Part shown: positions 38,558 to 57,030 of the stretch, one piece after another
How positions within the stretch are numbered: position 1 is the first letter of the stretch
How the letters are laid out: each line of letters begins with the position of its first letter
Origin: an uncultured delta proteobacterium
Lineage (GTDB): Bacteria > Desulfobacterota > Binatia > UBA9968
Assembly (NCBI GenBank): GCA_963727625.1
Contig: CAVSHR010000011.1
Location: 32,001 to 96,000, forward strand
Direction: 5' to 3'
DNA: 64,000 nt
Notes under the pieces: model-generated
Databases searched by the model: none
Seen by the model: only the letters and a program-made list of their open reading frames with translations
What the model was told of the DNA's origin: nothing
Translations under genes and position numbers: made by a program

Positions 38558-40216
38558 ATGATCGCCGGCCATGCAGTCGCTCAGTGTCTTCGCAACGAGG
38601 GTGTGCGCCATGTATTCTGCGTGCCGGGCGAGAGCTATGTCGCCGTGCTCGACGGACTCTATACGACGCCGGAAATTCAGGTAATCACCAATCGCCAGGA
38701 AGGCGGCGCCTGCTTCATGGCCGAGGGCTACGCCAAGGCGACGCGCAAGCCCGGCGTGTGCATCGTCACGCGCGGGCCGGGGGCGACTAACGCGAGCATC
38801 GCGGTGCACAGCGCCAAATACGATTCGGTGCCGCTGGTCTTGCTGGTCGGACAGGTGGCGCGCTCGGCGCGCGGGCGCGAAGCGGGGCAGGAGATCGACT
38901 ACACGCATTTTTTCGGCACCATCGCCAAATGGGTGATCGAGATCAACGACGCCAGGCAGGTGCCGCGGATCATGGCGCGGGCGTTTCACATCGCGCGCAG
39001 CGGCCGTCCGGGCCCGGTGGTCGTCTCCTTGCCGCGCGACATGCTCGAGGAGGATGCGAACATCTCGATGATCGATCCCTATCCAATGTTACGCGTCGAG
39101 CCCGATCCCAAGGCGATGCAAGAAATCGTCGAGCGCATCAACGCGGCGAAGAAGCCGGTGTTGATCGCCGGCTCGGGCACGCAGTATTCCGACGCGCGCC
39201 AGGAGCTGATCGACTTCTCGGAGAAGTTTCATATTCCGGTGCTGACGTCGTACAAACGCCAGGACGCGTTCCCCAACAGCCATCCGAACTACATCGGCAA
39301 CCTGGCCAACGCCAACAAGCACACGCGCAACCTGGTCGCGAACGAGGCGGATTTAGTCGTCGTTATCGGCAGTCGACTGAACCAGCAGACAACTGCAAGT
39401 TTCGCTTTTCCCAAACCCGGACAGCCGTTTATTCAGATCTATCCCGATGAGCAAACCATCGGCCATAACCTGCGCCCCGACTCGGGCATCGTCGCCGACG
39501 CGAAAATGGCGCTGGCCGCGGCGCTCAAATTCCCGGGACCGCGGCCGAACGAGAGCCGCGCCGGTTGGATCGCGGAACATCATGCCGCGCAAAAACGCTA
39601 CGCCACACCGGCCGAGCGCCCGACGCGGCGCGTGTCGATGGAGCGGGTGCTGGTCGATCTCAAAGCCGCGCTGCCGCCGGACGCGATTACGACAACCGAC
39701 GCCGGTAGCTTCGGTCAGTGGCACCAGCGCTACTTGGAATTTGACCACGCGGATTCCTACATCTCGCCAAGCTTGGGCTGCATGGGGCCGGGAGTGCCCT
39801 CGGCCGTGGCGGCGAAGCTCGCCCATCCAGAGCGGTTGGTCGTGACCCATGCCGGCGACGGCGGTTTCCTCATGACCGGGCAGGAGATGGCGACGGCAAA
39901 ACAATACGATGCCGACATCATTGCCATCGTCTACAACAACGAAGGCTACAACTCGATCCGCATGCACCAGGTAGCGCAGTATCCCGGCCGCCCTTGCGGC
40001 AACGATCTGGTCAATCCGGATTTCGCCGGGCTCGGCACGGCCTACGGTGCTCTGGGATTGAAAGTGAATCGCGACGAGGAATTCCTGCCTGCGCTCAAGC
40101 AAGCGATGGCAGCGAACAGGTCGGCGTTGATCGAGGTATCGACCGACATGGAATACGTCACACCGACGGCAACGCTGACCGAGCTTTCGGGAAAGCCGCT
40201 GCAGGGCGGGGATTAA
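38558..40216 (+). CDS. Thiamine diphosphate-dependent enzyme (acetolactate synthase-like)
   Basis: VPGES, RQEGGA, TRGPGATN and GDGG...NN ThDP-binding motif. Confidence 0.92.
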   Translation: MIAGHAVAQCLRNEGVRHVFCVPGESYVAVLDGLYTTPEIQVITNRQEGGACFMAEGYAKATRKPGVCIVTRGPGATNASIAVHSAKYDSVPLVLLVGQVARSARGREAGQEIDYTHFFGTIAKWVIEINDARQVPRIMARAFHIARSGRPGPVVVSLPRDMLEEDANISMIDPYPMLRVEPDPKAMQEIVERINAAKKPVLIAGSGTQYSDARQELIDFSEKFHIPVLTSYKRQDAFPNSHPNYIGNLANANKHTRNLVANEADLVVVIGSRLNQQTTASFAFPKPGQPFIQIYPDEQTIGHNLRPDSGIVADAKMALAAALKFPGPRPNESRAGWIAEHHAAQKRYATPAERPTRRVSMERVLVDLKAALPPDAITTTDAGSFGQWHQRYLEFDHADSYISPSLGCMGPGVPSAVAAKLAHPERLVVTHAGDGGFLMTGQEMATAKQYDADIIAIVYNNEGYNSIRMHQVAQYPGRPCGNDLVNPDFAGLGTAYGALGLKVNRDEEFLPALKQAMAANRSALIEVSTDMEYVTPTATLTELSGKPLQGGD

Positions 40217-40247
40217 GAAAAAGGGCGCTGGATTTTGTTCGTCGATG

Positions 40248-41360
40248 CTAAAGCGAATAAAATTCTTTCGGATTATGAATGAGAATCTTTTCGACTAACT
40301 CTGCTGAAATATCCTCGCGCGACTTCATCGCTTCCACCAGAGCTTTTTCTTCTGCCGGATCGTTGTGGCCGTAATCCGAGCCGATCATCAAGTGATCCTC
40401 GCCGATCTGCTCCGCCAAATAAGGAATATCCTCGTCCGCTTCGCAAGCGACGTAGATACGGTAGTCGCGGAACAGATCCTTGCACGAGGCGTGTTTCCAG
40501 CGCGCGTTGGGAAAAGACGGGCGCGGTCGCGCCGATCGCTTGAGATGATGGTACAGATACGGCACCCAGCTCGCCGACGCTTCGAGAAAACCGAATTTCA
40601 AACTTGGATACTTCTCGGGAATCTCGCTCGCCACCAGATCGCGAAAGCCGATCACCGGTGGCAGTTGCGAGGCGGCGAAGGTGCCGTTCAAGCCCAGATC
40701 GAAAAAATCGTTGATGTGGCGCGAGCTCTGGCCGGTGTGCACACAGATCGGCAGGCCGAGCTTTTCCGCTTCAGCGTAGATCGGATAGAAATGCGGATTG
40801 TTGAGTGTCAACGAACCGACGATGCCGCTGAAGAATAGTCCGACGGAGCCGTTCTTTTTCGCTTTGTGCATCTGCTCGATTGATGCGTCCACGCTGTGCA
40901 GCGGCAGCACGGCAACCCAGCGCAAGCGGCCGCGGCTCTTGGCGAACACTTGGGCTAGATAGCGGTTGTAAGCGGCGCAGAGCGCGCGCTCCAAGGCGTC
41001 ATCGTCGGTCACCTGGATGAGAAACAGGGTCGGGTAGATGATCTGGACGGCGACGCCGGCGCGATCCATGTCGGCCAGGCGGACCTCGACGTCGGTCAAT
41101 TCGCGCGACTCGCGCAGGATGTCGCGGCGCCCGGTCTCGCGCTTGGATGCCGCGGGCGTGATCAGACGGAAGCCGCCTTTGCCGGCGGCTTTGGGAAAGA
41201 TATTGCCGTCGATCAGCCAGAGCATGTTGAAATCGCCATACAACGTGTCTTCCGGAGCAGCGACCATCACCGGCCGGCGCCGTTGCATGTCGTTGTCGAT
41301 CAAGGTCCACATGCTCTGCGATTCTGCGATATGGGTGTCGGCGTCGATGATCCCGTTCAT
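40248..41360 (-). CDS. Amidohydrolase_2 family protein
   Basis: IDADTH, YPT, VHTG, FLEA..SW, GSDYGH-x-D. Confidence 0.88.
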   Translation of the reverse strand: MNGIIDADTHIAESQSMWTLIDNDMQRRRPVMVAAPEDTLYGDFNMLWLIDGNIFPKAAGKGGFRLITPAASKRETGRRDILRESRELTDVEVRLADMDRAGVAVQIIYPTLFLIQVTDDDALERALCAAYNRYLAQVFAKSRGRLRWVAVLPLHSVDASIEQMHKAKKNGSVGLFFSGIVGSLTLNNPHFYPIYAEAEKLGLPICVHTGQSSRHINDFFDLGLNGTFAASQLPPVIGFRDLVASEIPEKYPSLKFGFLEASASWVPYLYHHLKRSARPRPSFPNARWKHASCKDLFRDYRIYVACEADEDIPYLAEQIGEDHLMIGSDYGHNDPAEEKALVEAMKSREDISAELVEKILIHNPKEFYSL

Positions 41361-41675
41361 TTTCGTCTCCTCCATCCGGTTGTCCCCGACTCTATCGAGG
41401 AGCGAAACTCCGGGTCAAGTGGTCGACGGCCTGTGGCGGTGCTTTCGCGGTTAAAAATAAGTCTGCCGACATTCGGTCAGCGAAAGATCTCTCGCGTTGC
41501 TCGATATGACACAGCCGATTTTTGGTCGTCATTCCGAGCGTTAGCGAGGAATCTTTCCCTGTATTTCGACGCGGGCAATCTCTGGCTGAATCAGCGGCAT
41601 TCCGAATTCTGGTTTGACAGCAAAACAGCGCGCGTGGTTAAAGTTACCGAGAATCGACGCGAGGGAGGGCGGCTT

Positions 41676-42794
41676 ATGATCGGGGGATTTCGAGTCTATG
41701 ATGCCGACGCGCATGTCAATATCGCGCCGCAAATGTGGGAAGATCTGCCGAAAGAGTTCGCCGCGCGCCGGCCGCGTCCGGCGTTAATTCACGATGGCAG
41801 CGAGCTCGGCGGGTTCACCGCCGGCTGGTTGATCGACGGCCGCATGGAGCCACACGCCTTGGGGCCGGGTTTGCAGCCGGCCACGCCGCCGCGTTGGGTG
41901 GTCGAAGGACCGGATCGCGGCTCTTTGACGCTGGTCGACCCGGAGGCGCGCATCCGCGATCTCGATCGTCTGGGGATCGATGTGCAATTTTTGTTTCCCT
42001 CCACTTTATACGCCCGCTGGACCGCGGATCCACGTTTCGAAGCGGCGCTGTGTCGCGCTTTCAACCGCTTCATCGCGCGGCAAACCAAGCCATTCTCGAA
42101 GCGCTTGAAATGGGCCGGCCTGGTTCCGCTGCGCGAACCGCGCGAATCTATCCCGGCTCTAACTGAGATGATTGAGCTTGGCGCTTCCGCCGCGGTGGTT
42201 TTCGGCACCGCCCAGGACAAGATGCTGAGCGATCCGAGCTTCACGGATTTTTGGGACGAGTTCGCCCGCTGCAAGCTGCCGCTCTGCGTGCACATGGCGG
42301 CGAGCTTTCCGCCGTTCGATAGTTGCGTGGAAACGTTTCTGGGTGCGCACGCGCTCAGCATGGCTCTGCCTGCGCAAATGGCGTTCGTGGCGTTGCTCGC
42401 TACCGGCATGATGGATCGTTATCCCGATCTCCGGATCGCCTTCATGGAGTTCGGCGCCGAATGGATTTTCTACATGGTCGGCCGCCTGGATCATTATTTG
42501 GCGCGGGACCGCGAAATCCAGCCTCAAGTGCTTAACGCGCGCATGCCGGCGCACACGATGAAGGAATACCTCCGCTCTGGACGGGTGTTTATCTGCGGCG
42601 AGATGGAAGATCCGCTGATGAAAGAGGAAATCGCGCTGATGGGAGAAGACCAATTGCTTTACTCGTCGGACTATCCCCACGGCGAGGGGCGCGAAAAGGC
42701 CGCCCAAGAGCTATTGGAAAGACGCGATATCAGCCAAGCGCAAAAGCAGAAAATCCTCCACGACAATCCGATACGATTGTTCGGTGCAGTTTGA
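41676..42794 (+). CDS. Amidohydrolase_2 family protein
   Basis: YDADAH, FPS, CVH, FMEFG..W, SSDYPH; real start taken as ATG 41676 after GGAGG. Confidence 0.88.
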   Translation: MIGGFRVYDADAHVNIAPQMWEDLPKEFAARRPRPALIHDGSELGGFTAGWLIDGRMEPHALGPGLQPATPPRWVVEGPDRGSLTLVDPEARIRDLDRLGIDVQFLFPSTLYARWTADPRFEAALCRAFNRFIARQTKPFSKRLKWAGLVPLREPRESIPALTEMIELGASAAVVFGTAQDKMLSDPSFTDFWDEFARCKLPLCVHMAASFPPFDSCVETFLGAHALSMALPAQMAFVALLATGMMDRYPDLRIAFMEFGAEWIFYMVGRLDHYLARDREIQPQVLNARMPAHTMKEYLRSGRVFICGEMEDPLMKEEIALMGEDQLLYSSDYPHGEGREKAAQELLERRDISQAQKQKILHDNPIRLFGAV

Positions 42795-42891
42795 TCGCTA
42801 ATCGCAACTCAAACCGCTGAAACCGTCCGCGCGGTTTTGACCAAAGGGTGCAGTTTGTATTATGTAAAGAGCTAATAAGGATGCACAACGG

Positions 42892-43293
42892 ATGGAACTG
42901 GCGACATTCAGCGACAAGATCCAACAAACAATCGATTCCGGCAAAGAGAAAATGTACTTCGATTTGGTGGGAACGGCGAACATGCGCTGCTGGTTGAACG
43001 TCTATATGCCTGGCTCGGGCACCGTGGGGCTGCATTACCACAACAGCGACGAGACCTTTACGGTGATCGAAGGCAGCGGCGAACTCGTTCATCGCGACGG
43101 CAGCCGGACGGCGATCGAGAAGGGCAGCGTCGTGCTGATCCCGGCGAAGTCCTATTACAACATTAAAAATGCCGGCGACAGCGTGATGGCGCTCCTGGGC
43201 AATCGCGCCGAACCGTTCGGCGGTCCGACGATTTTTCTCGATCCGGAGCTCAACGAGAAAATGAAAGGGCGAAAACAGTTCGAGCGGATTTAA
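42892..43293 (+). CDS. Cupin domain protein
   Basis: LHYHNSDETFTVIEGSG motif. Confidence 0.85.
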   Translation: MELATFSDKIQQTIDSGKEKMYFDLVGTANMRCWLNVYMPGSGTVGLHYHNSDETFTVIEGSGELVHRDGSRTAIEKGSVVLIPAKSYYNIKNAGDSVMALLGNRAEPFGGPTIFLDPELNEKMKGRKQFERI

Positions 43294-43427
43294 AAGAGTC
43301 TAGAGTTTGGGTCTAGCTCGGGCAAATCGCCGGGCCTGCAACGAGACGGCGGCGCCGGCTCTTTCAAAACCATAGAACGCGTATTAAGTAATAAAGCAGC
43401 AACTTATGTTTTTAGGAGAGAAGCACC

Positions 43428-44516
43428 GTGGGAATTATTGACGCGGACACTCATATCGACGAAACAGATGACACCTGGGAGTACATACAAGAGTCGGATC
43501 TGACCTACAAGCCGACGACGGCCTATCCAGCCAATCCTGACCCGAAGCTGCCGCCGGCGCGCTACTGGGTGATCGATGGCAAGCGCCAGGTTCGTTTTAT
43601 CCGAAGCGACAAGGATTCCGGCACCACCGTCGAAACGCGCGAGCTTTTGGACGTGAAGGCCCGGCTCAAGCATATGGATGAGCTGGGCACGGACATTCAA
43701 GTTATCTATCCGACCTTGTTTTTGATGGAGGCGACGGATAAGCCGGAGATCAACACGGCGATGCGCCGCAGTTACAACCGCTGGCTGGGCGAGCGGTGCG
43801 GCCAGTCGGGCGGCAGGTTGCGTTGGGTGTGCATGCCGCCGCTGCAAAATATGGCCGCGACCGTTGAAGAACTCACTTGGGCTAAGGAGCACGGCGCCTG
43901 CGGTGTGCTCAAGAAAGGCGACCGTGAGGCGGGAAAATATCCAGCCGATCCCTATTTTGAACCGTTGTACGCCGAAGCGGAGAAACTCGACTTACCCATC
44001 TGCCTGCACACCGGTTCCGGGATTCCGGATTTTTCTCCGGCCAGAGAGTTTTCCCACGGACAATTCATGCGCACGAAAGCCGCGGCGATCAATGGCGTGC
44101 TCGGGATGGTTTTGCACAAAATCCCGATCAAGTTTCCCAAGCTCCGCATCGGCTGCATCGAAGCCGGTTCGATGTGGACGCCGTTCGTGGCTTACGATTT
44201 AAAGCGGCAGGCGTTCCGGCAAAAGGGGCGCGAGTCGGTAGGAGTGCTCGGCGTGCCGCAGATCGAGCTTCCGTCCAATGTATTCAAAGACAACCGGATC
44301 TACGTCACTTGTCAGGTGGATGAAGATCTGCCCTATATTTTCAAAACCGTCGGCGAAGATAATTTAATGGTCGGCTCCGACTACACCCATCGCGATCCGT
44401 CGATGGAGCTTGAGTTCCGCAAGGAACTGCAAGCGCGCGCGGACAAGGGCGATATCCCGCAAGCGGCAATTCAGAAGATTCTCTATGACAATCCGAAGGC
44501 GTTTTACGCGCTTTAA
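43428..44516 (+). CDS. Amidohydrolase_2 family protein
   Basis: IIDADTH, YPT, LHTG, IEAG..W, GSDYTH-x-D; paralog of 40248..41360. Confidence 0.88.
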   Translation: MGIIDADTHIDETDDTWEYIQESDLTYKPTTAYPANPDPKLPPARYWVIDGKRQVRFIRSDKDSGTTVETRELLDVKARLKHMDELGTDIQVIYPTLFLMEATDKPEINTAMRRSYNRWLGERCGQSGGRLRWVCMPPLQNMAATVEELTWAKEHGACGVLKKGDREAGKYPADPYFEPLYAEAEKLDLPICLHTGSGIPDFSPAREFSHGQFMRTKAAAINGVLGMVLHKIPIKFPKLRIGCIEAGSMWTPFVAYDLKRQAFRQKGRESVGVLGVPQIELPSNVFKDNRIYVTCQVDEDLPYIFKTVGEDNLMVGSDYTHRDPSMELEFRKELQARADKGDIPQAAIQKILYDNPKAFYAL

Positions 44517-44580
44517 GAGCGGGCGAGGTTCCTCGCTTTGCTTGGAATGAATTTGCCCTGTGATTTCGACCGAAGTTGTT

Positions 44581-44609
44581 TTGACAGAATAGCGGCGGTG
44601 AATTACAGT
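44581..44609 (+). promoter_or_regulatory. Sigma70-type promoter for the selenoprotein cluster
   Basis: TTGACA-N17-TACAGT, followed by the AGGAGG RBS and ATG 44640. Confidence 0.65.
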
Positions 44610-44639
44610 GAATTCAAATTTAACAGGAGGAGGGCGCAA

Positions 44640-45188
44640 ATGATCGTTCTCAGCCCGGAAGGGAAAGCGAAGACTTCGGCGGCGAAAATTGCCCCGGTGG
44701 CGCGCTTTACGAGTTTACAGGGGAAAACCATCGGGGTGCTAGATAATAGCAAGCCCAACGCCGACAAACTTGCGGAACGTTTGGCTGAACTGTTGAAAGA
44801 GCGCTATGGCGTGGCCCAAGTGATCACTCGGCGCAAGCTGACGGCGCAGCAAGGCGCGCCAAAACAATATATCGAGGAGCTGGCCGCGCAGACGGATTTT
44901 GTCCTAGCCGGTCTCGGTGATTGAGGCTCCTGCACGTCGTGGAGTGTCCACGACTCTTTAGAAATCCAGAAGCGCGGCAAGTTCGCCGTGACTTTCATCA
45001 CCAACGCTTTCACGGCGCTGGCGAAATCCGAAAAGGAAGCGTTCGGGGCGCCGGATCACCCGGTGCTGGTGGTGCAACATCCGATCGGCACCGTCAAAAT
45101 CGAAGAAGTGAACAAGCGCGCCGAAGCGGCGCTCGATCAGTTGGTCGAAATTTTACTCGAGCCGAGCGCTAAAGCGAAGGTTGCGTAG
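44640..45188 (+). CDS. UGSC-family selenoprotein 1 (Sec at TGA 44922-44924, residue 95)
   Basis: ORFs 44538..44924 and 44988..45188 are in one frame: ...LAGLGD-U-GSCTSWSVHDSLEIQKRGKFAVTFIT...QHPIG; SECIS-like hairpin at +11; the paralog has TGA at the same position. Confidence 0.88.
44936..44954 (+). promoter_or_regulatory. Bacterial SECIS-like hairpin
   Basis: GTCGTGGA-GTG-TCCACGAC, perfect 8-bp stem starting 11 nt after UGA, G first in the loop. Confidence 0.8.
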
Positions 45189-45277
45189 TAAAAGCACTTG
45201 CAAGTTTCGGGTTTCGAGTCTTGAGTTTAAGCGGAGATTCGAAACCCGAACTTTTTGTATTGTTACTTTTCCTAATT

Positions 45278-45363
45278 CCGTCATGTCGGCGCTGGCCGGC
45301 ATCTATACTTAGTCTTCGGTTGCGCGAACCAAACCTGGATTTCCGCCTGCGCGGGAATGACGG
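45278..45363. repeat. REP-like paired element (CCGTCAT...CTGGATTTCCGCCTGCGCGGGAATGACGG)
   Basis: Inverted ends CCGTCAT/ATGACGG with internal palindromes; related GGAATGA half-sites near 38420-38445 and 44528-44550. Confidence 0.6.
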
Positions 45364-45401
45364 ATAGGAAATTCAAAGTTCCTTGTTGAAGGGGTAGTCT
45401 T

Positions 45402-46454
45402 ATGGCAACGGCAGCACTGCAAGCGGAAAAGTTCGAAATCCCGGATGATATTTGGGAAGCGCAGGAATACTTCGTCGAAAAAGGTTGGTCCGATGGGCTG
45501 CCGGTCATACCTCCGACCGAAGCGCGCGTGGCGAAGATGCTAACCGGAACTAAGCGCAAGCCTGACGAAGCGATCGGGTCTGTGCCGCCGCGTTGGGCGG
45601 TCGCCACGGTGGAAAAGATCGCCATCAACGGCGTCATGGCCGGCTGCAAGCCCGAGTACATGCCGACTTTGATCGCCGTGGTCGAAGGGCTCTGTGATCC
45701 CAAGCTCAATCTCTACGCATTGCAAGCGACCACAGGCGGGCCGGCGGTGATGGCGATTATCAACGGTCCGGTGCGCAAACAGCTCAACGTTAACGGTGGC
45801 TCCAACGCTCTCGGTGAAGGCTGGCGCGCCAACGCGACCATCGGCCGTTTCGTGCAGATGGTCAAGCGCAATATCGGCGGTTCGCTCCCTGGCACGACCT
45901 GTAAGGCGACGTTGGGCTGGCCGGGAAAATATTCCATCTGCATCGGCGAAAACGAGGAATCGAGCCCTTGGGAGCCGCTGCACGTCGAGCGCGGCTTCAC
46001 AAAGGAACAGAGCACCGTGACGGCGATCAGCGCAGATGCGTCCGTGCGTGCGTCCGATTTGGACAGTACCAAGGCCGTAGGCATTCTCACCAATTTTGCC
46101 CAGCGTATGGAAGGGCCCTCGGGGCCGGAAGCGATCATGGTGGTCTGCCCCGAGCACGCCAAAATCATCGCGGGCGACGGTTTCAGTAAGAAAGACGTGC
46201 AGCAATTTGTCTGGGAGCGCGCCGCCTATCGGATGAAGGACCTGCCCGAGGAGACTTTCGCGCAACGGGTCAAACGCCGCTCCGATCTCAAGTTGACGCG
46301 CGACAGCATTATTCCCGTGACCGATAAGCCGGAAGATATCCTCGTCGTGGTCGCCGGCGGCGACGGCTCGCAGTCACAATATATCCATGTCTGGGGCCAA
46401 GGCACGCCGGAAGGCGGGTCGACGCGGTCGGTAACGAAATTGATCAAAGCATAA
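45402..46454 (+). CDS. Conserved hypothetical protein, partner of UGSC selenoprotein 1
   Basis: GWSDGLPVIPPT, EKIAINGVMAGC-x-PEY, RANATIGR and ENEESSPWEPLH motifs, shared with 47190..48254. Confidence 0.85.
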   Translation: MATAALQAEKFEIPDDIWEAQEYFVEKGWSDGLPVIPPTEARVAKMLTGTKRKPDEAIGSVPPRWAVATVEKIAINGVMAGCKPEYMPTLIAVVEGLCDPKLNLYALQATTGGPAVMAIINGPVRKQLNVNGGSNALGEGWRANATIGRFVQMVKRNIGGSLPGTTCKATLGWPGKYSICIGENEESSPWEPLHVERGFTKEQSTVTAISADASVRASDLDSTKAVGILTNFAQRMEGPSGPEAIMVVCPEHAKIIAGDGFSKKDVQQFVWERAAYRMKDLPEETFAQRVKRRSDLKLTRDSIIPVTDKPEDILVVVAGGDGSQSQYIHVWGQGTPEGGSTRSVTKLIKA

Positions 46455-46528
46455 GAGATCAAACGTTCGAGCCGTTCAATTCGTTCCAGACGTTAAAGCC
46501 GAAAAGATTATTTTTGGGAGATTCATCT

Positions 46529-47089
46529 ATGGCAACGATAAAATTTCTCGATCCGAGAGTGACGATAAATCCCAAAGACCGGCCGCTGGTGCCGGCTCTG
46601 GATACGCTGGAAAACAAAGTCATCGGCATCATCGATAACGGCCAGGCCAATTCGACAACGATGTTTCAGGAGCTGGCCAAATTGATTCAAGAAAAGTTCC
46701 AGACAAAAGAAGTGCTTTTCAAAACCAAGCCGACGCATATGCAGGGCGCGCCGAAGGCAATGATGGACGAAATTCTCAGCCGGTGCGACGCGGTGATCAC
46801 CGGTTTGGGGGCTTGAGGGTCGTGCACGTCGTGGAGTGTCCACGACGCCATCGAGCTGCAAAAGAAAGGAAAGCCGACGGTGACGCTGTGCCAGTCGATT
46901 TTCATGGAGCTGGCGCGCACCGAAGCGAAATTTTTTGGCCTGGCGAAACTTCCTTTAGTTGAAATCCCGCATCACCCAAGTGGCGGTGCGCGGCCGGGCG
47001 AACATCGAGCAGACGCAGAGGGGGCGATTAATTTGGTCAATGAGCAGTTGACGCTGGGCGGGAGAATGAAAAACTCGCAGGTGGCGTAA
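46529..47089 (+). CDS. UGSC-family selenoprotein 2 (Sec at TGA 46814-46816, residue 96)
   Basis: ORFs 46514..46816 and 46880..47089 are in one frame: ...ITGLGA-U-GSCTSWSVHDAIELQKKGKPTVTLC...PHHP; SECIS-like hairpin follows. Confidence 0.88.
46827..46847 (+). promoter_or_regulatory. Bacterial SECIS-like hairpin
   Basis: CGTCGTGGA-GTG-TCCACGACG; core identical to 44936..44954 and at the same distance from UGA. Confidence 0.8.
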
Positions 47090-47189
47090 CCTCCCACCTC
47101 GGTCCTCCCCCGAGGTGGCGGAGGAAATGAAATTACCCGATATGATCTTGATAGTGCGATTGCCATTCTAATTCGGAGCTTCGTAACAA

Positions 47190-48254
47190 ATGACTCTCAT
47201 TTCAAACGTCATCGAAGTCGAAGACACTTGGGAAGCGGTCAATGACTGGTTTTGCAAGGAAAAGCTGAGCGATGGCTTGCCGATCGTGCCGCCGACGGCT
47301 GAGCGCGTTGAGAAAATGCTCAGTGCGACGGATCGTGATCCCGCCGAGGTGATCGGGCCGATCCCGCCCAGGTGGGCGCCATGCTCGATCGAAAAGATTG
47401 CGATCAACGCGGTCATGGCCGGCTGTTTGCCCGAGTATCTGCCGGTGATCATCGCCGCGGTCGAAGCGATCTGCGAACCGCGTTTCAACCTTTATGGTGT
47501 TCAGGCCACGACTGGTTACGTCGGGCCGGCGCTGTTGCTCAACGGTCCGATTCGACGGCAATTGAACGTCAATTGCGATTCCGGTGTGTTCGGTCCGGGC
47601 TTCCGCTCCAACGCGACCATCGGCCGCGCCATGCGCTTGATTCTCATCACCGTCGGCGGCGGTTATCCGGGCGACACGGATCGATCGACGTTTGGTTGGC
47701 CCGGCAAGTACACCATGTGTTTCGGCGAGAACCAGGAGAAAAGCCCCTGGGAGCCGTATCACGTCGAATTCGGCTTCACGCCCAGCGATAGCACGGTAAC
47801 CGTGTTCGGCATCAACGGCTTTCTGCCGATCCACACCGCCGGCAATCGCGGCGAGCAGGCGCTCGCGTCATTGGCCGAAGTGATCAAAATGCATCACGGC
47901 GTGAGCCATCTCGACGTCGGCAGTTTCGGCGGCGGCACGCCGCTGATCGCGCTGGGCATCGAGGACGCCGAGATCATGGCGCGCGACGGCATCACCAAGA
48001 AGCAGGTCAAAGACTATCTCTGGGAACACGCGTCGTTAAAATTCTCCGAGGTCCCGGCGCGGCGCAAAGGCCATAAGAGCGACGAAGAGTTGTGCCGCGA
48101 AACGCCGAACATGACGCCGGACGGCGTGGTCCATTTGTCGACCAAACCCGAAGACATCATGATCATCGTCATTGGCGGCAAGCATCGCCATTCGGTGTTC
48201 CTGCCGATGTGGACCGGGCGCAACACTTTGTGCGTAATCAAGGGGATAAAATAG
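47190..48254 (+). CDS. Conserved hypothetical protein, partner of UGSC selenoprotein 2
   Basis: SDGLPIVPPT, EKIAINAVMAGCLPEY, RSNATIGR, GWPGKY, ENQEKSPWEPYH; paralog of 45402..46454. Confidence 0.85.
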   Translation: MTLISNVIEVEDTWEAVNDWFCKEKLSDGLPIVPPTAERVEKMLSATDRDPAEVIGPIPPRWAPCSIEKIAINAVMAGCLPEYLPVIIAAVEAICEPRFNLYGVQATTGYVGPALLLNGPIRRQLNVNCDSGVFGPGFRSNATIGRAMRLILITVGGGYPGDTDRSTFGWPGKYTMCFGENQEKSPWEPYHVEFGFTPSDSTVTVFGINGFLPIHTAGNRGEQALASLAEVIKMHHGVSHLDVGSFGGGTPLIALGIEDAEIMARDGITKKQVKDYLWEHASLKFSEVPARRKGHKSDEELCRETPNMTPDGVVHLSTKPEDIMIIVIGGKHRHSVFLPMWTGRNTLCVIKGIK

Positions 48255-48277: not shown

Positions 48278-49279
48278 ATGCATCAGATTGGGCGTTTCGT
48301 CGGTTTGGTAATTTTATTGATTGCGGTTGTCGCGACGCCGTTTGCGGCGGCCCAAGACAAGGTTCGCATGGGGTTGAGCTCGGTGAGCGCATTGCACAGC
48401 GCCGTGTGGGTGGCCGAGCAAAAGGGTTTATTTCGCAAGCATGGTATCGATCCGGAAATCATCGTTACCGGGCAAGGCGGCACCGCCGGCATCGGCGCGC
48501 TGCTCGCCAACGATATTCAAATGGCGAGCTCGGCCGGCGATTCGCTGGTAGCGGCGGCGTTGCGCGGCGGCGATACGGTGATGGTTGCGGGCGTCGTCAA
48601 CAAGGGTTTACAGAGGATTGTCACGACACCAGACATCAAGGTGCCGGCGGATTTGAAAGGCAAACGCATCGGCGTCACCCGCATCGGCGCGGTGTCGTAT
48701 TCCGTTTTGCTCATGATGCTGCAGCGCTGGAAGATGACCACGAACGACGTGCAAGTCATGCAAGTCGGCTCGTCGCCGAACATGCTCGCCGCCATGGCCA
48801 AAGGGGGGCTCGACGCCGCCGTATTGACGATTCCGTCGATGTTCGTCGCCGAAGATCGGGGCTATCGCACGTTGCTCGATATGGCCGACACCGATATTTA
48901 TTATCTGCACACGATGATCGCGACCACGAACCACTATATCAAAGCCCACCGCGATGTCGTGCTGAGATTTCTCAAGGGCTACCTTGAGGGGATTGCCTAT
49001 GTGAAACAGCATCGAAAGGAAAGCGCCGAAGTCGTCAAGAAAAAACTCCGCATCGGCGCCGCTCAAGAGCACAACCTGGAGCGGTCCATCGATTTGCTGA
49101 GCGATAAATATTACGAGCAGGTTCCGTACCCCGCCATGCGCGGCGTCGAGACCGTGCTCGGTTTTGTCGAACGGGACAATCCCAAGGCAAGCGGCGCCGA
49201 TCCCAAGTCATTCGTCGATGATAGCCTGCTGCGCGAGATCGATCAGAGCGGTTTTATAAAGAAGCTCTACCAGCGCTAG
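48278..49279 (+). CDS. ABC transporter substrate-binding protein (SsuA/NMT1-like)
   Basis: Signal peptide, WVAEQKGLFRKHG, DLKGKRIGVTRIG, FVDDSLLREI; 23 nt after the preceding stop. Confidence 0.87.
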   Translation: MHQIGRFVGLVILLIAVVATPFAAAQDKVRMGLSSVSALHSAVWVAEQKGLFRKHGIDPEIIVTGQGGTAGIGALLANDIQMASSAGDSLVAAALRGGDTVMVAGVVNKGLQRIVTTPDIKVPADLKGKRIGVTRIGAVSYSVLLMMLQRWKMTTNDVQVMQVGSSPNMLAAMAKGGLDAAVLTIPSMFVAEDRGYRTLLDMADTDIYYLHTMIATTNHYIKAHRDVVLRFLKGYLEGIAYVKQHRKESAEVVKKKLRIGAAQEHNLERSIDLLSDKYYEQVPYPAMRGVETVLGFVERDNPKASGADPKSFVDDSLLREIDQSGFIKKLYQR

Positions 49280-50000: not shown

Positions 50001-50402
50001 ATGGGAAAATCGATATTAATAGTTGATGACAATCCAGTGAATATGAAGCTTATCCGGATATTGCTCGGCGGCGAGGGCTATGATGTCCAGACGGCGGCGG
50101 ATGCAGAGGAAGCCTTGCGAATCCTGCAGCAATCGCATCCGTCCATGATCCTGATGGACATCCAGTTGCCGGGGATTGACGGTCTGGAGCTTACGCGGCG
50201 CCTCAAAGGGGACCCCCTGACACGCGATATTCGTATCTTGGGGTTGACCGCTTATGCCATGAAAGGGGACGAAGAGAGAATTTTAGCCGCCGGTTGCGAC
50301 GGCTACATTGCCAAGCCCATCGACACGCGCTCTCTACCGGGCGTCATAGAGAGCTATCTCGAACTTGATCCAGTGAAAAAGCCTACAGCGGCGCGTTTGT
50401 GA
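50001..50402 (+). CDS. Single-domain response regulator (DivK/CheY-like)
   Basis: ILIVDD, LMDIQLPGIDG, LTAYAMKGD, GCDGYIAKP. Confidence 0.92.
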   Translation: MGKSILIVDDNPVNMKLIRILLGGEGYDVQTAADAEEALRILQQSHPSMILMDIQLPGIDGLELTRRLKGDPLTRDIRILGLTAYAMKGDEERILAAGCDGYIAKPIDTRSLPGVIESYLELDPVKKPTAARL

Positions 50403-50437
50403 TAGCGACCCATGGCAATCCGTGCGAATACACCTCA

Positions 50438-53161
50438 ATGAAAATTCTTGTTGTTGAAGATAACCCGTTATCGAGGAAGTTTACCCGAGTCGCGCTAGAA
50501 GCTGATGGTTTTTCCGTGGTCGAAGCGAAGGACGGGCAGTCCGCCATCGCGAGCCTTGAACGCGAGCTTCCGAATCTAATTTTGCAGGATATTCTGCTTC
50601 CCGATATCGACGGATTCGAGCTCGTGAACCGATTGCACGCCGTGCCCGGCGCGGAATCCATTCCAATCCTGGCGTTGACTGGATTGATCAGCAAGAACGG
50701 TGAAACCAAGCTGCCGCAGGCTGCCTTCGAGGATTATCTGTTCAAGCCGGTTGACCCGGTGTTTCTAACCAGCACCGTGCGCGCCCATTTGGCGGCGAAT
50801 CAGACTTCGAAGCAAAAGCCGGGGCAAGGGCTCGTCATTCTTGCGGTCGACGATGACCCGAGGCAGCTCAAGCTTCTGGCGACCTATTTAGGCAACCTCG
50901 GCTTTGGCGTGACCACGGCTAAAGACGGTAATGAAGCGTTGAGGAAAGCCTCAGCGACGCTGCCCGACGCTATAATTTCGGATGTTTTGATGCCCGGGCT
51001 CGACGGTTTCGAGCTGTGTAGGGCGATCCGAAAACATGACCGGCTCGGGCTGATTCCGGTAATCTTACTGACCAATAGTTACTACGACTCAGCTGACAAG
51101 CGGATGGCGGCGGAGATTGGCGCCAACGCGCTGGTGATGCGCACACCGGACTGCAAGGACGGCGTGAAAGCCCTGCTCCACAGCCTTGTTGATCCCGCCC
51201 CGGTGCCGATGCCCGATGAAAGCGGATTTGAATCCCTGCACCGTGATAGTTTGATGCGACAGCTCAATCGCCAGGCGAAGCTCAACGTCGACTTAGCGCG
51301 CCGCTGCGCGGTGCAGAGCGCCCAGATCGCCGTCCTTGCCAGCGTGGCGCAAAGCTTTTTGCGCTCCGGGGAAAACATCGAAAGCCTCTTGTCCGAAATT
51401 CTCGCCCATTACATGGCGGTTATCGGTTTTTCGCGCGGCGTCGTCTATCTGATGGATCAAGACTCGGTCCTGAAGCTGTCAGGTCAGATTGGATTTTTCA
51501 CAAGCAGCGAAAATGCCTTGACAGACTTTTTCGGCTGCAGCGATCTCTTATATTCAACCATGGCGCAGAAAGAACCGGTGGTCTTCAGCGCGCCAGCCGT
51601 CGAGGAAAAATATCAAACCCTGCTGGACCGCTCCGGGGTGCGCTCCGTGCTCCTCGCTCCGCTCGCCTTCAATGACCGCGCGCTCGGCGCCATCGGATTG
51701 TTTTCCGATAGCCGACAGCTATATCCCGAATGGATTAGCTTTTCGAAATTGATTAACGGCCAAATCAGCCAAGCGGTGGCGCTGTGGCAAACGATTTCTC
51801 AATTGAAATTTTTGGCCGCCTATGATCCTTTGACCGCTTTGCCGAACCGGGCTCGGATGGCCAAACGGGTGGATGAAATCCTCGATCGAGGGGACAGTTC
51901 GGCCGAGGTTGCATTGTTGCGGATCAACATCGATCGATTCGAAGAAATCAACAATGCGCTCAGTTATCAAAAAGGCGATGAATTGTTGCGCCAGTTCGCG
52001 GCCAGGCTTCAAAAATCCGTTCGTAACGCCGACCTGTTGGCGCGGCTCGATGCCGATGAATTCGCCGTGGTGCTTTCGGGAAACGGTGTCGCGCAGCAGG
52101 TGCCGGAAACCGCCCGGTTGATTTTCGCCGCATTGGAAGCGCCGTTCACCATCGATCATCTTCCGTTGGAAGTTAACGCGAGCATCGGCGTGGCGCTGGC
52201 GCCCGAGCATGCGACGAACGCCGAAGATTTGCTGCGTCGGAGCGATATGGCAATGCGGGCGGCGAAGCGCTCGGTTTCGGGTTATTCTATTTACACAACG
52301 GCCATCGACAAATACGATCCGCAGCGTTTAACGCTGATGGGCGAGCTCAGTTACGCCATCGATCACGACGAGCTTGCACTCTTTTATCAGCCGAAGATTA
52401 GCTTTAAAAGCAACCGGATCGTCGGTGTCGAAGCACTGCTGCGCTGGTACCATCCGCAACGGGGCATGGTCGCACCGGATGAGTTCATACCGCTCGCCGA
52501 AAAAACCGGCGCGATCCAAAGACTCACTCAATGGGTGTTCACCAAAGCGATCCGACAAGCGGCACTCTGGCGTCGCGCTGGGATTCCGCTCAAAGTTTCG
52601 CTTAATCTATCGGTGCGCAATCTGCTCGAGCCGACGTTCCCGAACCGGATGATGTCGATCATCGAAAGCGAGGGCGCCGGGGTTGATGGCATCACCATGG
52701 AGATCACCGAAAGCGCCTTGATGGCGGACCCGGCGACGGCGAGAAAAGTGCTGATCGTTTTGAGTGAGCGAGGTCTGCATTTTTCGATCGATGATTTCGG
52801 CACGGGTTATTCCTCGCTAGCCTACCTCAAGCATTTGCCGGTGGGCGAAATTAAAATAGATAAACTGTTTGTCGCCAAACTAAACACCGACGCGGACGAC
52901 AGCGCCATCGTGCGTTCGACCATCGAGCTCGGCCATAACCTTGGTCTCTCCGTGACCGCGGAAGGGGTCGAAGACGAGCAGACCTGGGCGAGGCTGGCCG
53001 AGCTGGGGTGCGATGAGGCGCAGGGATATTACATGAGTCGGCCGCTCCCTTTGGATCAACTGGAGCGCTGGCTGATCGAATCGCAGTGGGGTGTGCAACC
53101 GGCACTTGATGGCGCGAAGGTCCAAGCGCCATTGAGTGACGCAAACTTGAGACCTCTTTAA
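50438..53161 (+). CDS. REC-REC-GAF-GGDEF(degenerate)-EAL c-di-GMP phosphodiesterase
   Basis: Two receiver domains, GAF-like middle, DPLTALPNR..RLDADEF, then EALLRW and DDFGTGYSSL. Confidence 0.92.
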   Translation: MKILVVEDNPLSRKFTRVALEADGFSVVEAKDGQSAIASLERELPNLILQDILLPDIDGFELVNRLHAVPGAESIPILALTGLISKNGETKLPQAAFEDYLFKPVDPVFLTSTVRAHLAANQTSKQKPGQGLVILAVDDDPRQLKLLATYLGNLGFGVTTAKDGNEALRKASATLPDAIISDVLMPGLDGFELCRAIRKHDRLGLIPVILLTNSYYDSADKRMAAEIGANALVMRTPDCKDGVKALLHSLVDPAPVPMPDESGFESLHRDSLMRQLNRQAKLNVDLARRCAVQSAQIAVLASVAQSFLRSGENIESLLSEILAHYMAVIGFSRGVVYLMDQDSVLKLSGQIGFFTSSENALTDFFGCSDLLYSTMAQKEPVVFSAPAVEEKYQTLLDRSGVRSVLLAPLAFNDRALGAIGLFSDSRQLYPEWISFSKLINGQISQAVALWQTISQLKFLAAYDPLTALPNRARMAKRVDEILDRGDSSAEVALLRINIDRFEEINNALSYQKGDELLRQFAARLQKSVRNADLLARLDADEFAVVLSGNGVAQQVPETARLIFAALEAPFTIDHLPLEVNASIGVALAPEHATNAEDLLRRSDMAMRAAKRSVSGYSIYTTAIDKYDPQRLTLMGELSYAIDHDELALFYQPKISFKSNRIVGVEALLRWYHPQRGMVAPDEFIPLAEKTGAIQRLTQWVFTKAIRQAALWRRAGIPLKVSLNLSVRNLLEPTFPNRMMSIIESEGAGVDGITMEITESALMADPATARKVLIVLSERGLHFSIDDFGTGYSSLAYLKHLPVGEIKIDKLFVAKLNTDADDSAIVRSTIELGHNLGLSVTAEGVEDEQTWARLAELGCDEAQGYYMSRPLPLDQLERWLIESQWGVQPALDGAKVQAPLSDANLRPL

Positions 53162-53450
53162 TCCTTGTTTCGACTTTCCAATATTTTCCCTAATATGTGT
53201 TGAACTGAGCCGCAGCTGGCGCGGCGCTTTCATCGAGTTCCCTCTCCTATTCAGATTTTCTCATTGATTTGCTGCCGCACGGACGAGGCGAAAAGCGCCG
53301 CGCCGCACGCGTTGGCATTTCTCCGACTTCTTCAAGGACACCGTGATTGATCTTCTGATCGCCGCATCGCGCGCAGAAAACCTGCTTCGCTTGACAATCG
53401 GTTCGAGGCTCAAATAAGGTCAGCACAAATTCTCAAGGAGGTATCGAATC

Positions 53451-54290
53451 GTGGCAGCAACTTTATGGAAAGAATACAAGACGGTTAAGGTCGAAAAGGA
53501 AGACGGGATTACCTGGTGTATTCTCAACCGCCCGGAAAAGCGCAATGCGATGAATCCACAGCTTCATTACGACATGCTGGAAGCCCTCACCGAGCTGGAA
53601 GTTGACAAGGAAACCAAAGTACTGGTTCTTACCGGCGCCGGGCCGAGCTGGTGCGCCGGACAGGATTTGCGCGAATATTTCCGCGGTACCGACACCAATC
53701 CGTTGGAAAGGCGCCGAGCGAGTTGGGCCTCGCAAGAGTGGCGCTGGCGCCGCTTGTTCTACTTTCCCAAGCCGACCATCGCCATGGTTAACGGCTTTTG
53801 CTTCGGCGGCGCGTTCACGCCCCTGATCGCTTGCGATTTCGCCATTGCCGCGGAGGATGCGACCTTCGGCTTGAGCGAAGTCAATTGGGGAATATTCCCG
53901 GGCGGATTGGTCAGCCGCGTGTTGGCTGACGCCATGTGTTACCGCGACGCCATGTGGGCGATCATGACCGGCGATCCGTTCGACGGTAAAAAAGCCGCTG
54001 AGGTCAAACTGATCAATTACGCGGTACCGAAAGAAAAGTTGCGCGACGAGACCATAGCCCTGGCGCAGAAACTTATGAAGAAAAATCCCCAAGTGCTGCG
54101 CGCCGCCAAGGAAGTCTATAAATATTGCCGGACGATGGATTACGGCCAGGCGGAAGATTACATGGGCGCGAAAGGCACGGCGTTGCGCTTCACCGATCCA
54201 GAAAAAGGCCGGGAGACCGGAATGGAGCAGTTTCTCGACAAAAAAACTTACCGGCCGGGTCTGGGCGAATACGATCGCAACGCGAAATAA
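53451..54290 (+). CDS. p-Hydroxycinnamoyl/feruloyl-CoA hydratase-lyase
   Basis: RPEKRNAM, DLREYFR, EWRWRRL, KPTIAMVNGFCFGG, GLSEVNWGI, KNPQVLRAAK, EDY, GMEQFLDKK..PGL-x-x-Y closely follow the HCHL pattern. Confidence 0.87.
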   Translation: MAATLWKEYKTVKVEKEDGITWCILNRPEKRNAMNPQLHYDMLEALTELEVDKETKVLVLTGAGPSWCAGQDLREYFRGTDTNPLERRRASWASQEWRWRRLFYFPKPTIAMVNGFCFGGAFTPLIACDFAIAAEDATFGLSEVNWGIFPGGLVSRVLADAMCYRDAMWAIMTGDPFDGKKAAEVKLINYAVPKEKLRDETIALAQKLMKKNPQVLRAAKEVYKYCRTMDYGQAEDYMGAKGTALRFTDPEKGRETGMEQFLDKKTYRPGLGEYDRNAK

Positions 54291-54391
54291 AGTTCAAGGT
54301 TCAATAGTTCAACGTTCAAGATCGGATGCGGGTTTTGGGTTGACAGTTTGTCAGCAATCCAAAATCCGCACTTCGATATAATGGAGCAGCA

Positions 54392-55555
54392 GTGGATTTC
54401 GATTTACCTGAAGAGCTGCAGCTTTTGAAGGGAACGGTTCGCAAGTTCGTTGACCGAGAGCTGATCCCGCTCGAGCGCGAGTGCCGCCCGGAAGGCGAAG
54501 ACATGCCGGAGCAGTACATCAAGCCGCTCCAGGAGAAAGCCAAGGCGATCGGCCTCTGGCTGCTCGACGTGCCTCAGGAATACGGCGGCGCCGGTCTCGA
54601 CTTGATGAGCCGCTGCGTGATTATGGAAGAAGTGGCGCGCACGGTGGCGATTCCGTTTCGCTACGCGCCGATCTTCGGCCCGGAAGTCCGGCCGGTGCTG
54701 TTTCACTGCAACGATGAACAGAAGCAGCGATTTCTGTTTCCGGTGATTCGCGGTGAGAAGAAAATTTGTTTCGCACAGACCGAGCCGGATGCCGGCAGCG
54801 ATCCGGCGGGAATGAAAACTCGCGCGGTGCGCGACGGCGATCATTACATGATCAACGGGACCAAGCGTTTTATCACGGGAGCCAAGACCGCCGATTACGC
54901 TCAGGTGATTGCCGTGACTGATCCGCAGAAAGGCGCTCGCGGCGGAGTGAGCTGCTTCGTCGTCGATATGAAGGCGCCGGGAGTGACGCTCGAAAAATTG
55001 TGGCCTACGATGATGGGCGACACGCCTGGGCAGATCCTTTTCGAAAACGTGCGCGTGCCGGCGGCGGATATGATCGGCAAGGAAGGCGAGGGATTTTCCA
55101 TCGCTCAGGGTTGGATCCAGGAGGGCCGCATCCGCGGCCACGGCGCCCGTCCGGTTGGCATCGCTTCCCGCGCTCTCGACATGATGATCGAATATTCCAA
55201 AGTACGCACGACTTTTGGCCGGCCGCTGGCCGACCGCCAAGCGATCCAGTTCATGATCGCAGACTCGGCGATGGAGTTGCATGCCTGCCGGCTGATGGTC
55301 TATGAGTGCGCATGGCGCCATGACCGCGGCGAAGACATTCGCCAGCTTTCCTACATGACCAAGATTCTGTGCGCCGAGATGGCGAGCCGGGTGGTCGACC
55401 GCTCGATTCAAGTGCACGGCGGGTTAGGGCTGATGCGCGAGTTGCCGCTCGAGTGGTGGTACCGGCAAGTGCGCAGCATCCGAATCACCGAAGGCACGCC
55501 GGAGGTCCTGCGCTGGCGCTTGGCGCAGCATATCATCAAAAATCACAAGGGCTGA
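54392..55555 (+). CDS. Acyl-CoA dehydrogenase (paralog of 30519..31673)
   Basis: QTEPDAGSDPA, NGTKRFITGA, QVHGG, ITEGTPE. Confidence 0.93.
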   Translation: MDFDLPEELQLLKGTVRKFVDRELIPLERECRPEGEDMPEQYIKPLQEKAKAIGLWLLDVPQEYGGAGLDLMSRCVIMEEVARTVAIPFRYAPIFGPEVRPVLFHCNDEQKQRFLFPVIRGEKKICFAQTEPDAGSDPAGMKTRAVRDGDHYMINGTKRFITGAKTADYAQVIAVTDPQKGARGGVSCFVVDMKAPGVTLEKLWPTMMGDTPGQILFENVRVPAADMIGKEGEGFSIAQGWIQEGRIRGHGARPVGIASRALDMMIEYSKVRTTFGRPLADRQAIQFMIADSAMELHACRLMVYECAWRHDRGEDIRQLSYMTKILCAEMASRVVDRSIQVHGGLGLMRELPLEWWYRQVRSIRITEGTPEVLRWRLAQHIIKNHKG

Positions 55556-55683
55556 CCAGGCTGCTGAAAAAGACTCCTATGCTTCGTTGCGCTCGATCGC
55601 CTCGCTCCGACGTACTGAGGAGTTCGCCCGCGCTCGTTGATTCGTCGCGCGCCTCGCCTCTGAGATCTTTTTGAGCAGCCTGG
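55556..55683. mobile_element. MITE-like 128-bp element with 18-bp terminal inverted repeats
   Basis: CCAGGCTGCTGAAAAAGA ... TCTTTTTGAGCAGCCTGG (1 mismatch), directly after the ACAD stop codon. Confidence 0.65.
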
Positions 55684-55706
55684 AGATCCAAATCAAAAAC
55701 GCTCCA

Positions 55707-56915: not shown

Positions 56916-56919
56916 ACCA

Positions 56920-57025
56920 ATTAATAAATGAAAATGGAGAATGGATAATTGAAAACGGATCAAGCCTCATTCGGTAAACTAAGAGACGAGCTCCGAAATT
57001 CTCAATTCTCCATTCTCAATTAATT
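56920..57025. repeat. Inverted heptamer tandem arrays (AAATGGA-type ... AATTCTC-type)
   Basis: AAATGAA AATGGAG AATGGAT AATTGAA ... AATTCTC AATTCTC CATTCTC AATT. Confidence 0.7.
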
Positions 57026-57030
57026 TAAAG

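Follow-up and report, generated by a model that had tools for sequence, protein, structure and literature searches.

We analysed a 64,000-nucleotide (nt) stretch of DNA, hereafter the window, from an uncultured delta proteobacterium (GTDB lineage Bacteria; Desulfobacterota; Binatia; UBA9968), which carries two consecutive gene pairs, each composed of a UGSC-motif selenoprotein gene and a gene for a protein of about 350 amino acids (aa), here called the partner. Each UGSC gene and the gene that follows it probably encode the two subunits of a selenocysteine (Sec)-dependent thiol/selenol oxidoreductase, most likely a reductase. The window is best explained as containing this enzyme in two diverged copies, and a third copy, in which both parts are fused, is present in the genome. 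This reading is carried by the Sec genes, their linkage to and fusions with the partner, the homology of the Sec loop to that of the selenoprotein B subunits of glycine and proline reductases (GrdB and PrdB), and a model of the complex that passed its controls.

All four genes lie on the plus strand. The UGSC-A gene (44640..45188, 182 aa), with Sec95 encoded by the TGA at 44922-44924, is followed by partner-A (45402..46454, 350 aa, unnamed family). The UGSC-B gene (46529..47089, 186 aa), with Sec96 encoded by the TGA at 46814-46816, is followed by partner-B (47190..48254, 354 aa), which was recognized as a paralogue of partner-A from its open reading frame (ORF) and sequence identity. Under translation table 11, the selenoprotein genes appear as four ORF fragments (44538-44924 and 44988-45188; 46514-46816 and 46880-47089), and reading TGA as U joins each pair of fragments into a single frame, as the first-pass annotation of this DNA had seen. 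Starts were assigned to ATG codons preceded by Shine-Dalgarno-like stretches. The Sec contexts are AGLGD-U-GSCTSWSVHD in UGSC-A and TGLGA-U-GSCTSWSVHD in UGSC-B, and the two proteins are 36% identical. The partners are 42-44% identical and share the motifs DGLPxxPPT, MAGCxPEY and NATIGR (in partner-A: DGLPVIPPT, MAGC82, RANATIGR149, ENE183 and SPW190EP), in agreement with the earlier description of a paralogous protein of about 350 aa behind each selenoprotein.

Both selenoproteins matched the family profile PF24696 across the TGA (UGSC-A: E 8e-48, 163.2 bits; UGSC-B: E 2e-41, 142.3 bits; cut-off 25). With NF041046, UGSC-A scored 139.2 bits, above the cut-off of 125, and UGSC-B scored 112.5 bits, below it, so that UGSC-B passes the Pfam model only. 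U95 and U96 align to an invariant column of 67 UGSC sequences, and Cys-form homologues, which the first-pass annotation had suggested looking for, carry CGSC at the Sec position. The Sec machinery that it had also suggested searching for was found in the genome: selA, selB, selD and tRNA-Sec (76.7 bits). Among the UGSC matches in 151 genomes of the phylum, exactly one in-frame TGA was present in 49 of 55 and none in 6. The profile match across the TGA, the full Sec machinery and the single in-frame TGA in most matches favour read-through over chance, and Sec decoding is settled as far as sequence goes. The selD gene (G000:C5:718540-719466, L010) lies directly after selA and selB and has one in-frame TGA itself, indicating a Sec-containing SelD. 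Additionally, the tRNA-Sec model has four weaker matches within 11 kb (G000:C11:336778-347406; 37.6-44.3 bits), below its gathering score of 47; these are probably long-arm tRNAs in a tRNA cluster.

A Sec insertion sequence (SECIS)-like hairpin, GUCGUGG-AGUGU-CCACGAC (44936..44954, plus strand), begins 12 nt past the UGA of UGSC-A, and UGSC-B has the same hairpin sequence plus one extra pair (46828..46846, plus strand). Covariation was counted in the 57 nt from the TGA onward of 67 UGSC genes, comprising the two of the window and 65 from other genomes. In the seven-pair stem, 89.6% of the cells formed standard pairs, compared with 78.1% in shuffles, and slid controls were only 19-52% paired. 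Compensatory changes on both sides occurred at five of the seven stem pairs, and the observed covariation score was reached by none of 500 shuffles. At pair 21-27, 38 genes have GC and 28 have CG. Column 27 falls on the third position of a valine codon, so that a synonymous site here follows its pairing partner.

The UGSC family itself is already known (PF24696, NF041046; Zhang and Gladyshev 2007/2008), and the window selenoproteins show no difference from it: they match across the TGA, carry the U-G-S-C motif and have Sec at the family position. A "UGSC-containing protein" appears in the 2007 list of function-unknown selenoproteins (PMC1976440). In the Global Ocean Sampling (GOS) data, few selenoprotein families were as abundant as UGSC, which had 255 Sec forms and 21 Cys forms; the same work, from 2008, suggested a thioredoxin-like fold and mentioned a fusion to a domain named "Unknown_1" (PMC2398784), which is likely to be the partner family of the window. 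The available portions of a 2022 review (PMC9312934) and of a 2026 review, which places UGSC among selenoproteins with largely uncharacterised functions (PMC13188914), still assign no function. Within the accessible text of these four sources, neither an assigned function nor a description of the two-gene unit was found, and the constant partner is undescribed beyond the "Unknown_1" fusion; the first-pass annotation had likewise known of no function. Its description of the selenoprotein system as hidden was too strong, since Pfam and NCBIfam models exist and NCBI names some members "UGSC family (seleno)protein". It had also predicted that standard annotation would fragment these genes. Many public gene calls do cut UGSC genes at the TGA or print W there, whereas curated annotation names the family. 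Eight homologues of UGSC-A (P0274-P0276, P0278, P0279 and P0292-P0294; 36-81% identical) have W at the Sec position (GDWGSC or GAWGSC), most likely a TGA misread as Trp by the gene caller.

The linkage of UGSC to the partner was examined in 80 partner-seeded loci, which were taken from named genome contigs and span many phyla (Binatia, Methylomirabilota, Chloroflexota, Betaproteobacteria, Acidobacteriota, Poribacteria and one Bacillaceae isolate). A same-strand UGSC domain was found within the fetched flanks of 67 loci, at a distance of no more than 300 nt in 62 and of 0.7-2.2 kb in 5; one of these five is a degenerate UGSC domain belonging to a second partner copy. UGSC lay upstream of the partner in 36 loci and downstream in 31, and in 15 loci both were in one frame without an intervening TAA or TAG. 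The Sec position was TGA in 64 of the 67 loci, cut off in 2 and Gly in 1. Moreover, the co-occurrence that the first-pass annotation proposed to look for was observed in the 151 genomes of the phylum: UGSC and partner were both present in the same 18, both absent from 133, and never found one without the other, a plain count among related genomes rather than a statistical test. The copy numbers of UGSC and partner also ran parallel (3/3 in this genome; 6/6, 14/13, 9/11 and 4/4 in others).

Fusions connect the two families further. Among 150 partner representatives, 83 consisted of the partner alone and 36 began with the post-TGA half of UGSC, the sign of a Sec fusion that a gene caller has split. 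Another 12 had a whole UGSC domain in front, with a CGSC or degenerate motif, and 4 had a C-terminal UGSC start that stopped at the Sec position, so that UGSC was fused to the partner in 52 of the 150. The others comprised 6 partner-partner tandems, 5 proteins with another N-terminal domain and 4 with shorter, unexplained extensions. The third copy of this genome, on contig 7 (L024:352-2013, minus strand), joins UGSC and partner in frame as a 553-aa protein, whose Sec (U104) lies in a U-S-T-C motif. A functional tie between UGSC and its neighbour of about 350 aa is supported by their linkage and co-occurrence, by fusions in either order and by the complex model described below.

The Sec segment of UGSC is related to that of two known reductases. 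Using hhalign, a profile of the 67 UGSC sequences matched 8 GrdB-like sequences with a probability of 95.9% (E 5.9e-9, 86 columns) and 20 PrdB-like sequences with a probability of 92% (E 6.4e-7, 95 columns). In both alignments U falls on U, and a G-x-P-T-V strand and an H-P-x-G loop are common to both sides. The negative controls gave 0.4% and 0.1%, and the positive control, PrdB-like against GrdB-like, gave 99.8%. On this sequence evidence, UGSC is distantly homologous to the C-terminal segment of GrdB/PrdB that bears Sec, but does not belong to PF07355, the family of GrdB, GrdF, GrdH and PrdB. The homologous segment runs from the strand before Sec to the C-terminal helix, and UGSC lacks the PF07355 region of about 340 residues. 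The PF07355 profile itself matched neither UGSC-A nor UGSC-B at E <= 10 and none of the 67 members at E <= 1; the link is invisible to Pfam because PF07355 stops just before Sec.

UGSC and its partner also resemble selenoprotein B of the glycine and proline reductases in that the Sec subunit and a larger second subunit are encoded adjacently. The partner is, however, unrelated to the GrdE/PrdA proprotein (PF09338), and a pyruvoyl group is therefore not expected. As a candidate GrdE/PrdA, it was rejected by an hhalign probability of 0.3% against GrdE-like sequences and by the lack of a Pfam match in 73 members; as a candidate GrdB N-domain, it was rejected by a probability of 0.2% against GrdB. 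The genome also has four GrdB-like genes (contigs 6, 11, 7 and 12; loci L108-L111), in which the PF07355 match ends at a TGA and the frame reads on as ILTST-U-GT[SC]T; each adjoins a PF09338 GrdE-like gene. On contig 7, roughly 7 kb separate one of them from the gene of the fused third copy. Across the phylum, short PrdB-like genes with Sec occur commonly.

The partner family is large and lacks a database model. More than 7171 proteins matched at E <= 0.001 among 8000 candidates scored. The family has 5580 representatives at 50% identity, of which 1339 matched at E <= 1e-30. All named matches were "hypothetical protein", and a protein atlas contained only clusters that were unnamed or automatically named "thioredoxin family". 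Pfam gave no meaningful match in any of 73 members, and NCBIfam gave none to partner-A or partner-B. The partner profile found no PDB sequence at E <= 1. An AlphaFold2 model built from 73 sequences (predicted local distance difference test, pLDDT, 95.7; predicted template modelling score, pTM, 0.93) had no Foldseek match in the PDB at E <= 0.001, and the best Z of VIA-align against 48,161 chains was 4.3; this fold search covered mainly residues 115-341 and barely tested residues 1-114. The top Foldseek rows, class I fumarate hydratase and cyanuric acid hydrolase, were weak, with template modelling (TM) scores of no more than 0.2, and no fold was assigned. Thus, no solved relative of the partner was found. 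Several residues are well conserved among the 150 representatives, namely Asp31 (143), Pro34 (147), Cys82 (147), Asn144 (149), Arg149 (149), Glu183 (149) and Trp190 (146), and Cys180 is present in 134. The partner genes of L038, L057, L063, L075 and L093 are missing profile positions ~282-315, and no UGSC domain lies within 4 kb of them; four of these loci are from Poribacteria, and L093 is labelled only "uncultured bacterium".

The AlphaFold2 model of UGSC (pLDDT 94.4) comprises five parallel beta-alpha units, with Sec at the start of a helix. Its Foldseek neighbours were only generic flavodoxin-like proteins (TM 0.4-0.5), and no thioredoxin-fold family appeared among the Pfam matches of UGSC members. 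The model looks flavodoxin-like; a thioredoxin-like fold has been suggested in print (PMC2398784).

A heterocomplex, whose prediction the first-pass annotation had also put forward, was modelled from the window partner-A and P0277, a Cys-form UGSC that served as a 74%-identical stand-in, using single sequences without alignments. Three runs gave an interface score (ipSAE, the model's own confidence) of 0.84, and the best of three controls gave 0.00; of the reference sets, 51 of 78 solved complexes and 2 of 108 mismatched pairs attained this mark. Agreement between runs was at least 95% of contacts, and the pLDDT of the partner chain was at least 83. Memory of a known complex is an unlikely source of this result because no like complex has been solved. 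The confident contacts are predicted between UGSC residues 1-12, including the invariant Pro6, and partner residues 6-15, 37-40 (the PPT motif), 57-79 and 153-160.

Taken as a two-subunit enzyme, each pair could work as follows. The partner would bind the substrate through the near-invariant Cys82, Asn144, Arg149, Glu183 and Trp190, and the flavodoxin-like UGSC is predicted to dock on it by its invariant N-terminal strand. The U-G-S-C loop would be presented at the start of a helix, as a homologue of the Sec loop of glycine/proline reductase selenoprotein B. In GrdB and PrdB, Sec acts on the substrate. By analogy, the Sec of UGSC may attack the bound substrate or a partner-substrate adduct, Cys98 of the UxxC motif may resolve the intermediate to a selenenylsulfide, and a thioredoxin-type dithiol may reduce the selenenylsulfide again. 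The reductase reading gains from the homology of UGSC to the Sec segment of GrdB/PrdB. That the pair is catalytic, which way its reaction runs, what donates the electrons and what serves as substrate are all inferred. The proposal of the first-pass annotation, an enzyme of two subunits that depends on Sec for redox chemistry or bond cleavage, still stands as the best reading, with the GrdB/PrdB homology in its favour and its activity putative.

Some partner proteins carry a thioredoxin-fold domain. Among the five representatives with another N-terminal domain, three had AhpC-TSA/Redoxin domains above the Pfam cut-offs, with CxxC. In seven of the 80 loci, a Redoxin-like CxxC domain was fused to the N-terminus of the partner; in L087, L090, L094, L103 and L105 this fusion is followed by a Sec UGSC gene (U-G-S-C-T-[ST]-C), and in L072 and L079 no UGSC is nearby. 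Since five of the seven fusions have a UGSC gene, the thioredoxin-fold domain adds to UGSC more often than it replaces it. These fusions fit an electron path from a dithiol through UGSC to the substrate. PilB, a fusion of thioredoxin with methionine sulfoxide reductases MsrA/B, likewise joins a thioredoxin-fold reductant to a reductase. The fusion of the partner to AhpC-TSA/Redoxin CxxC domains in some genomes resembles this arrangement and points to thiol-based turnover. The difference is that the usual companion here is a Sec-bearing flavodoxin-like domain and the putative reductase matched no described family in the Pfam, NCBIfam and PDB searches.

Several observations weigh against the two-subunit enzyme. 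The third copy lacks both Cys82 (Ala) and Cys180 (Thr), and His replaces its Arg142. UGSC was absent within 4 kb of 13 of the 80 partner loci. The partner resembles neither GrdE/PrdA nor GrdB, so that the Grd/Prd mechanism is not simply transferable. The complex model rests on the P0277 stand-in instead of a window UGSC and was folded without alignments; its confident contacts involve only UGSC residues 1-12 and not the Sec loop, so that an approach of Sec to the conserved residues of the partner is hypothetical. A conserved neighbour that would name the substrate was sought in the 80 loci and not found, the commonest, TctC, being present in 11. In addition, a strong hairpin followed by a U-run between UGSC-A and partner-A may make the amounts of the two proteins unequal.

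In the main rival reading, the partner might be the whole enzyme, with Cys82 and Cys180 as catalytic and resolving thiols, and UGSC a dedicated electron carrier whose UxxC reduces a disulfide or sulfenate of the partner at each turnover; we regard this as rather doubtful, though worth serious attention. Thioredoxin and glutaredoxin serve methionine sulfoxide reductase, arsenate reductase and peroxiredoxins in the same manner. The conservation of Cys82 and Cys180 (147 and 134 of 150 representatives) would suit such an enzyme, as would the thioredoxin-fold CxxC domains fused to the partner in place of or alongside UGSC. In the model UGSC is held by its N-terminal strand, as would be expected of a mobile carrier domain. 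However, the Sec loop of UGSC is homologous to one that acts on the substrate in GrdB/PrdB, and one-to-one copies, with up to 14 pairs per genome, would be unusual for a general carrier. The fused third copy retains Sec after losing both partner cysteines, and a Sec UGSC gene is still kept where thioredoxin is fused to the partner. The two-subunit reading is favoured by the one-to-one copy numbers, the strong preference for Sec, the GrdB-type loop and the composition of the third copy.

The two pairs of the window might instead form a single obligate hetero-oligomer of A-type and B-type subunits, an assembly that the first-pass annotation had offered as one option; we consider this unlikely. 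In its favour, the order UGSC-partner-UGSC-partner with A- and B-type motifs recurs in a related Binatia locus (L028), a B-type UGSC in L059 is flanked by two partners, and 6 of the 150 representatives are tandems of two partner domains. A single pair, however, is what most of the 80 loci contain, and B-type pairs occur alone within 4 kb in L033 and L045. Because of these solitary B-type pairs, the window is read as encoding two enzymes, whose A- and B-type pairs are old paralogues. The tandem proteins (P0127, P0128, P0188, P0216, P0260 and P0266) are about 710 aa long; MAGC is present in none of their halves and NATIGR mostly in one half only. A division of these proteins into an A-like and a B-like half was tried and rejected, as the halves do not sort in this way.

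The genes around the pairs bear on the substrate. The recurrent neighbour families in the 80 loci included solute-binding proteins (TctC, 11; NMT1-like, 5; SBP_bac_5, 5), thiamine pyrophosphate (TPP) enzymes (6), family III coenzyme A (CoA)-transferases (6), MmgE/PrpD (4), enoyl-CoA hydratases (4) and luciferase-like monooxygenases (4), and the window neighbourhood has the same gene mix. This hints at small organic acids or amines, no more, and up to 14 pairs in one genome suggest varied substrates. That the module instead handles a metal, metalloid or selenium, in binding, detoxification or trafficking through its Sec/Cys motifs, seems very improbable. UxxC and CxxC motifs can bind soft metals, and the accessible text of the 2026 review (PMC13188914) leaves the function unassigned. 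Nevertheless, metal-resistance and transport genes were not among the recurrent neighbours of the 80 loci, which were solute-binding proteins, CoA-transferases, TPP enzymes, MmgE/PrpD and enoyl-CoA hydratases, and the paralogue expansion to 14 per genome fits varied substrates better. A true stop at the TGA, with the fragments as pseudogenes or separate small genes, is already contradicted and has practically no likelihood left: the frames are split under table 11 and public gene callers cut them likewise, but the family profile spans the TGA, the conserved hairpin covaries at a synonymous site, the Sec machinery of the genome is complete, and Cys takes the Sec position in Cys-form homologues.

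With the two-subunit Sec enzyme as the preferred reading, a wider proposal may be made, tentatively, as one reasonable possibility. UGSC and its partner could represent a very widespread, undescribed class of selenoenzymes, in which the Sec module of glycine/proline reductase is re-used on a catalytic subunit without a solved relative. Driven by thioredoxin, these enzymes would reductively cleave small organic acids or amines in aerobic bacteria of soil and water, and each pair would be tuned to a different substrate. New here are the profile comparison, run with controls, that connects UGSC with the Sec segment of GrdB/PrdB; the count of covariation in the SECIS-like hairpin; the predicted docking through the N-terminal strand of UGSC; and the account of this genome's tandem and fused copies. 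UGSC thereby gains a defined partner for which no database model exists, a tested evolutionary link and a predicted docking site, which makes its function directly testable.

Other features of the window concern the expression and surroundings of the pairs. A sigma-70-like promoter pattern, TTGACA-17-TACAGT (44581..44609, plus strand), precedes UGSC-A and matches 10 of 12 consensus positions. The near-consensus promoter of the first-pass annotation is therefore present as a pattern, but only as a consensus match, since 6 such sites occur in 6.8 kb, compared with 3.2 +/- 1.5 in shuffles. A Shine-Dalgarno-like stretch, AGGAGGAGGG (44625..44634, plus strand), was read from the sequence 5 nt upstream of the ATG of UGSC-A. 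The hairpin between UGSC-A and partner-A (45206..45250, plus strand) has 17 bp and a U-run (CUUUUUG) behind it, like a terminator or attenuator, with a folding energy of -34.2 kcal/mol (z -6.4); it could end or thin the transcript between the two genes. No comparable hairpin was seen at the same site in L028 or L029. Its interpretation as a repeat element was rejected, as it occurs once in the genome and is not conserved in those two loci.

Upstream of the pairs (38558-44516) lie genes for a TPP enzyme, three Amidohydro_2 proteins and a cupin, and the Amidohydro_2 gene nearest to UGSC-A is at 43428..44516 (plus strand; PF04909 E 1e-22). A gene for an NMT1/SsuA-like solute-binding protein (48278..49279, plus strand) begins 23 nt past partner-B. 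Farther downstream (50399-58245) are genes for a response-regulator/GAF/GGDEF/EAL protein, an enoyl-CoA hydratase, an acyl-CoA dehydrogenase and two family III CoA-transferases.

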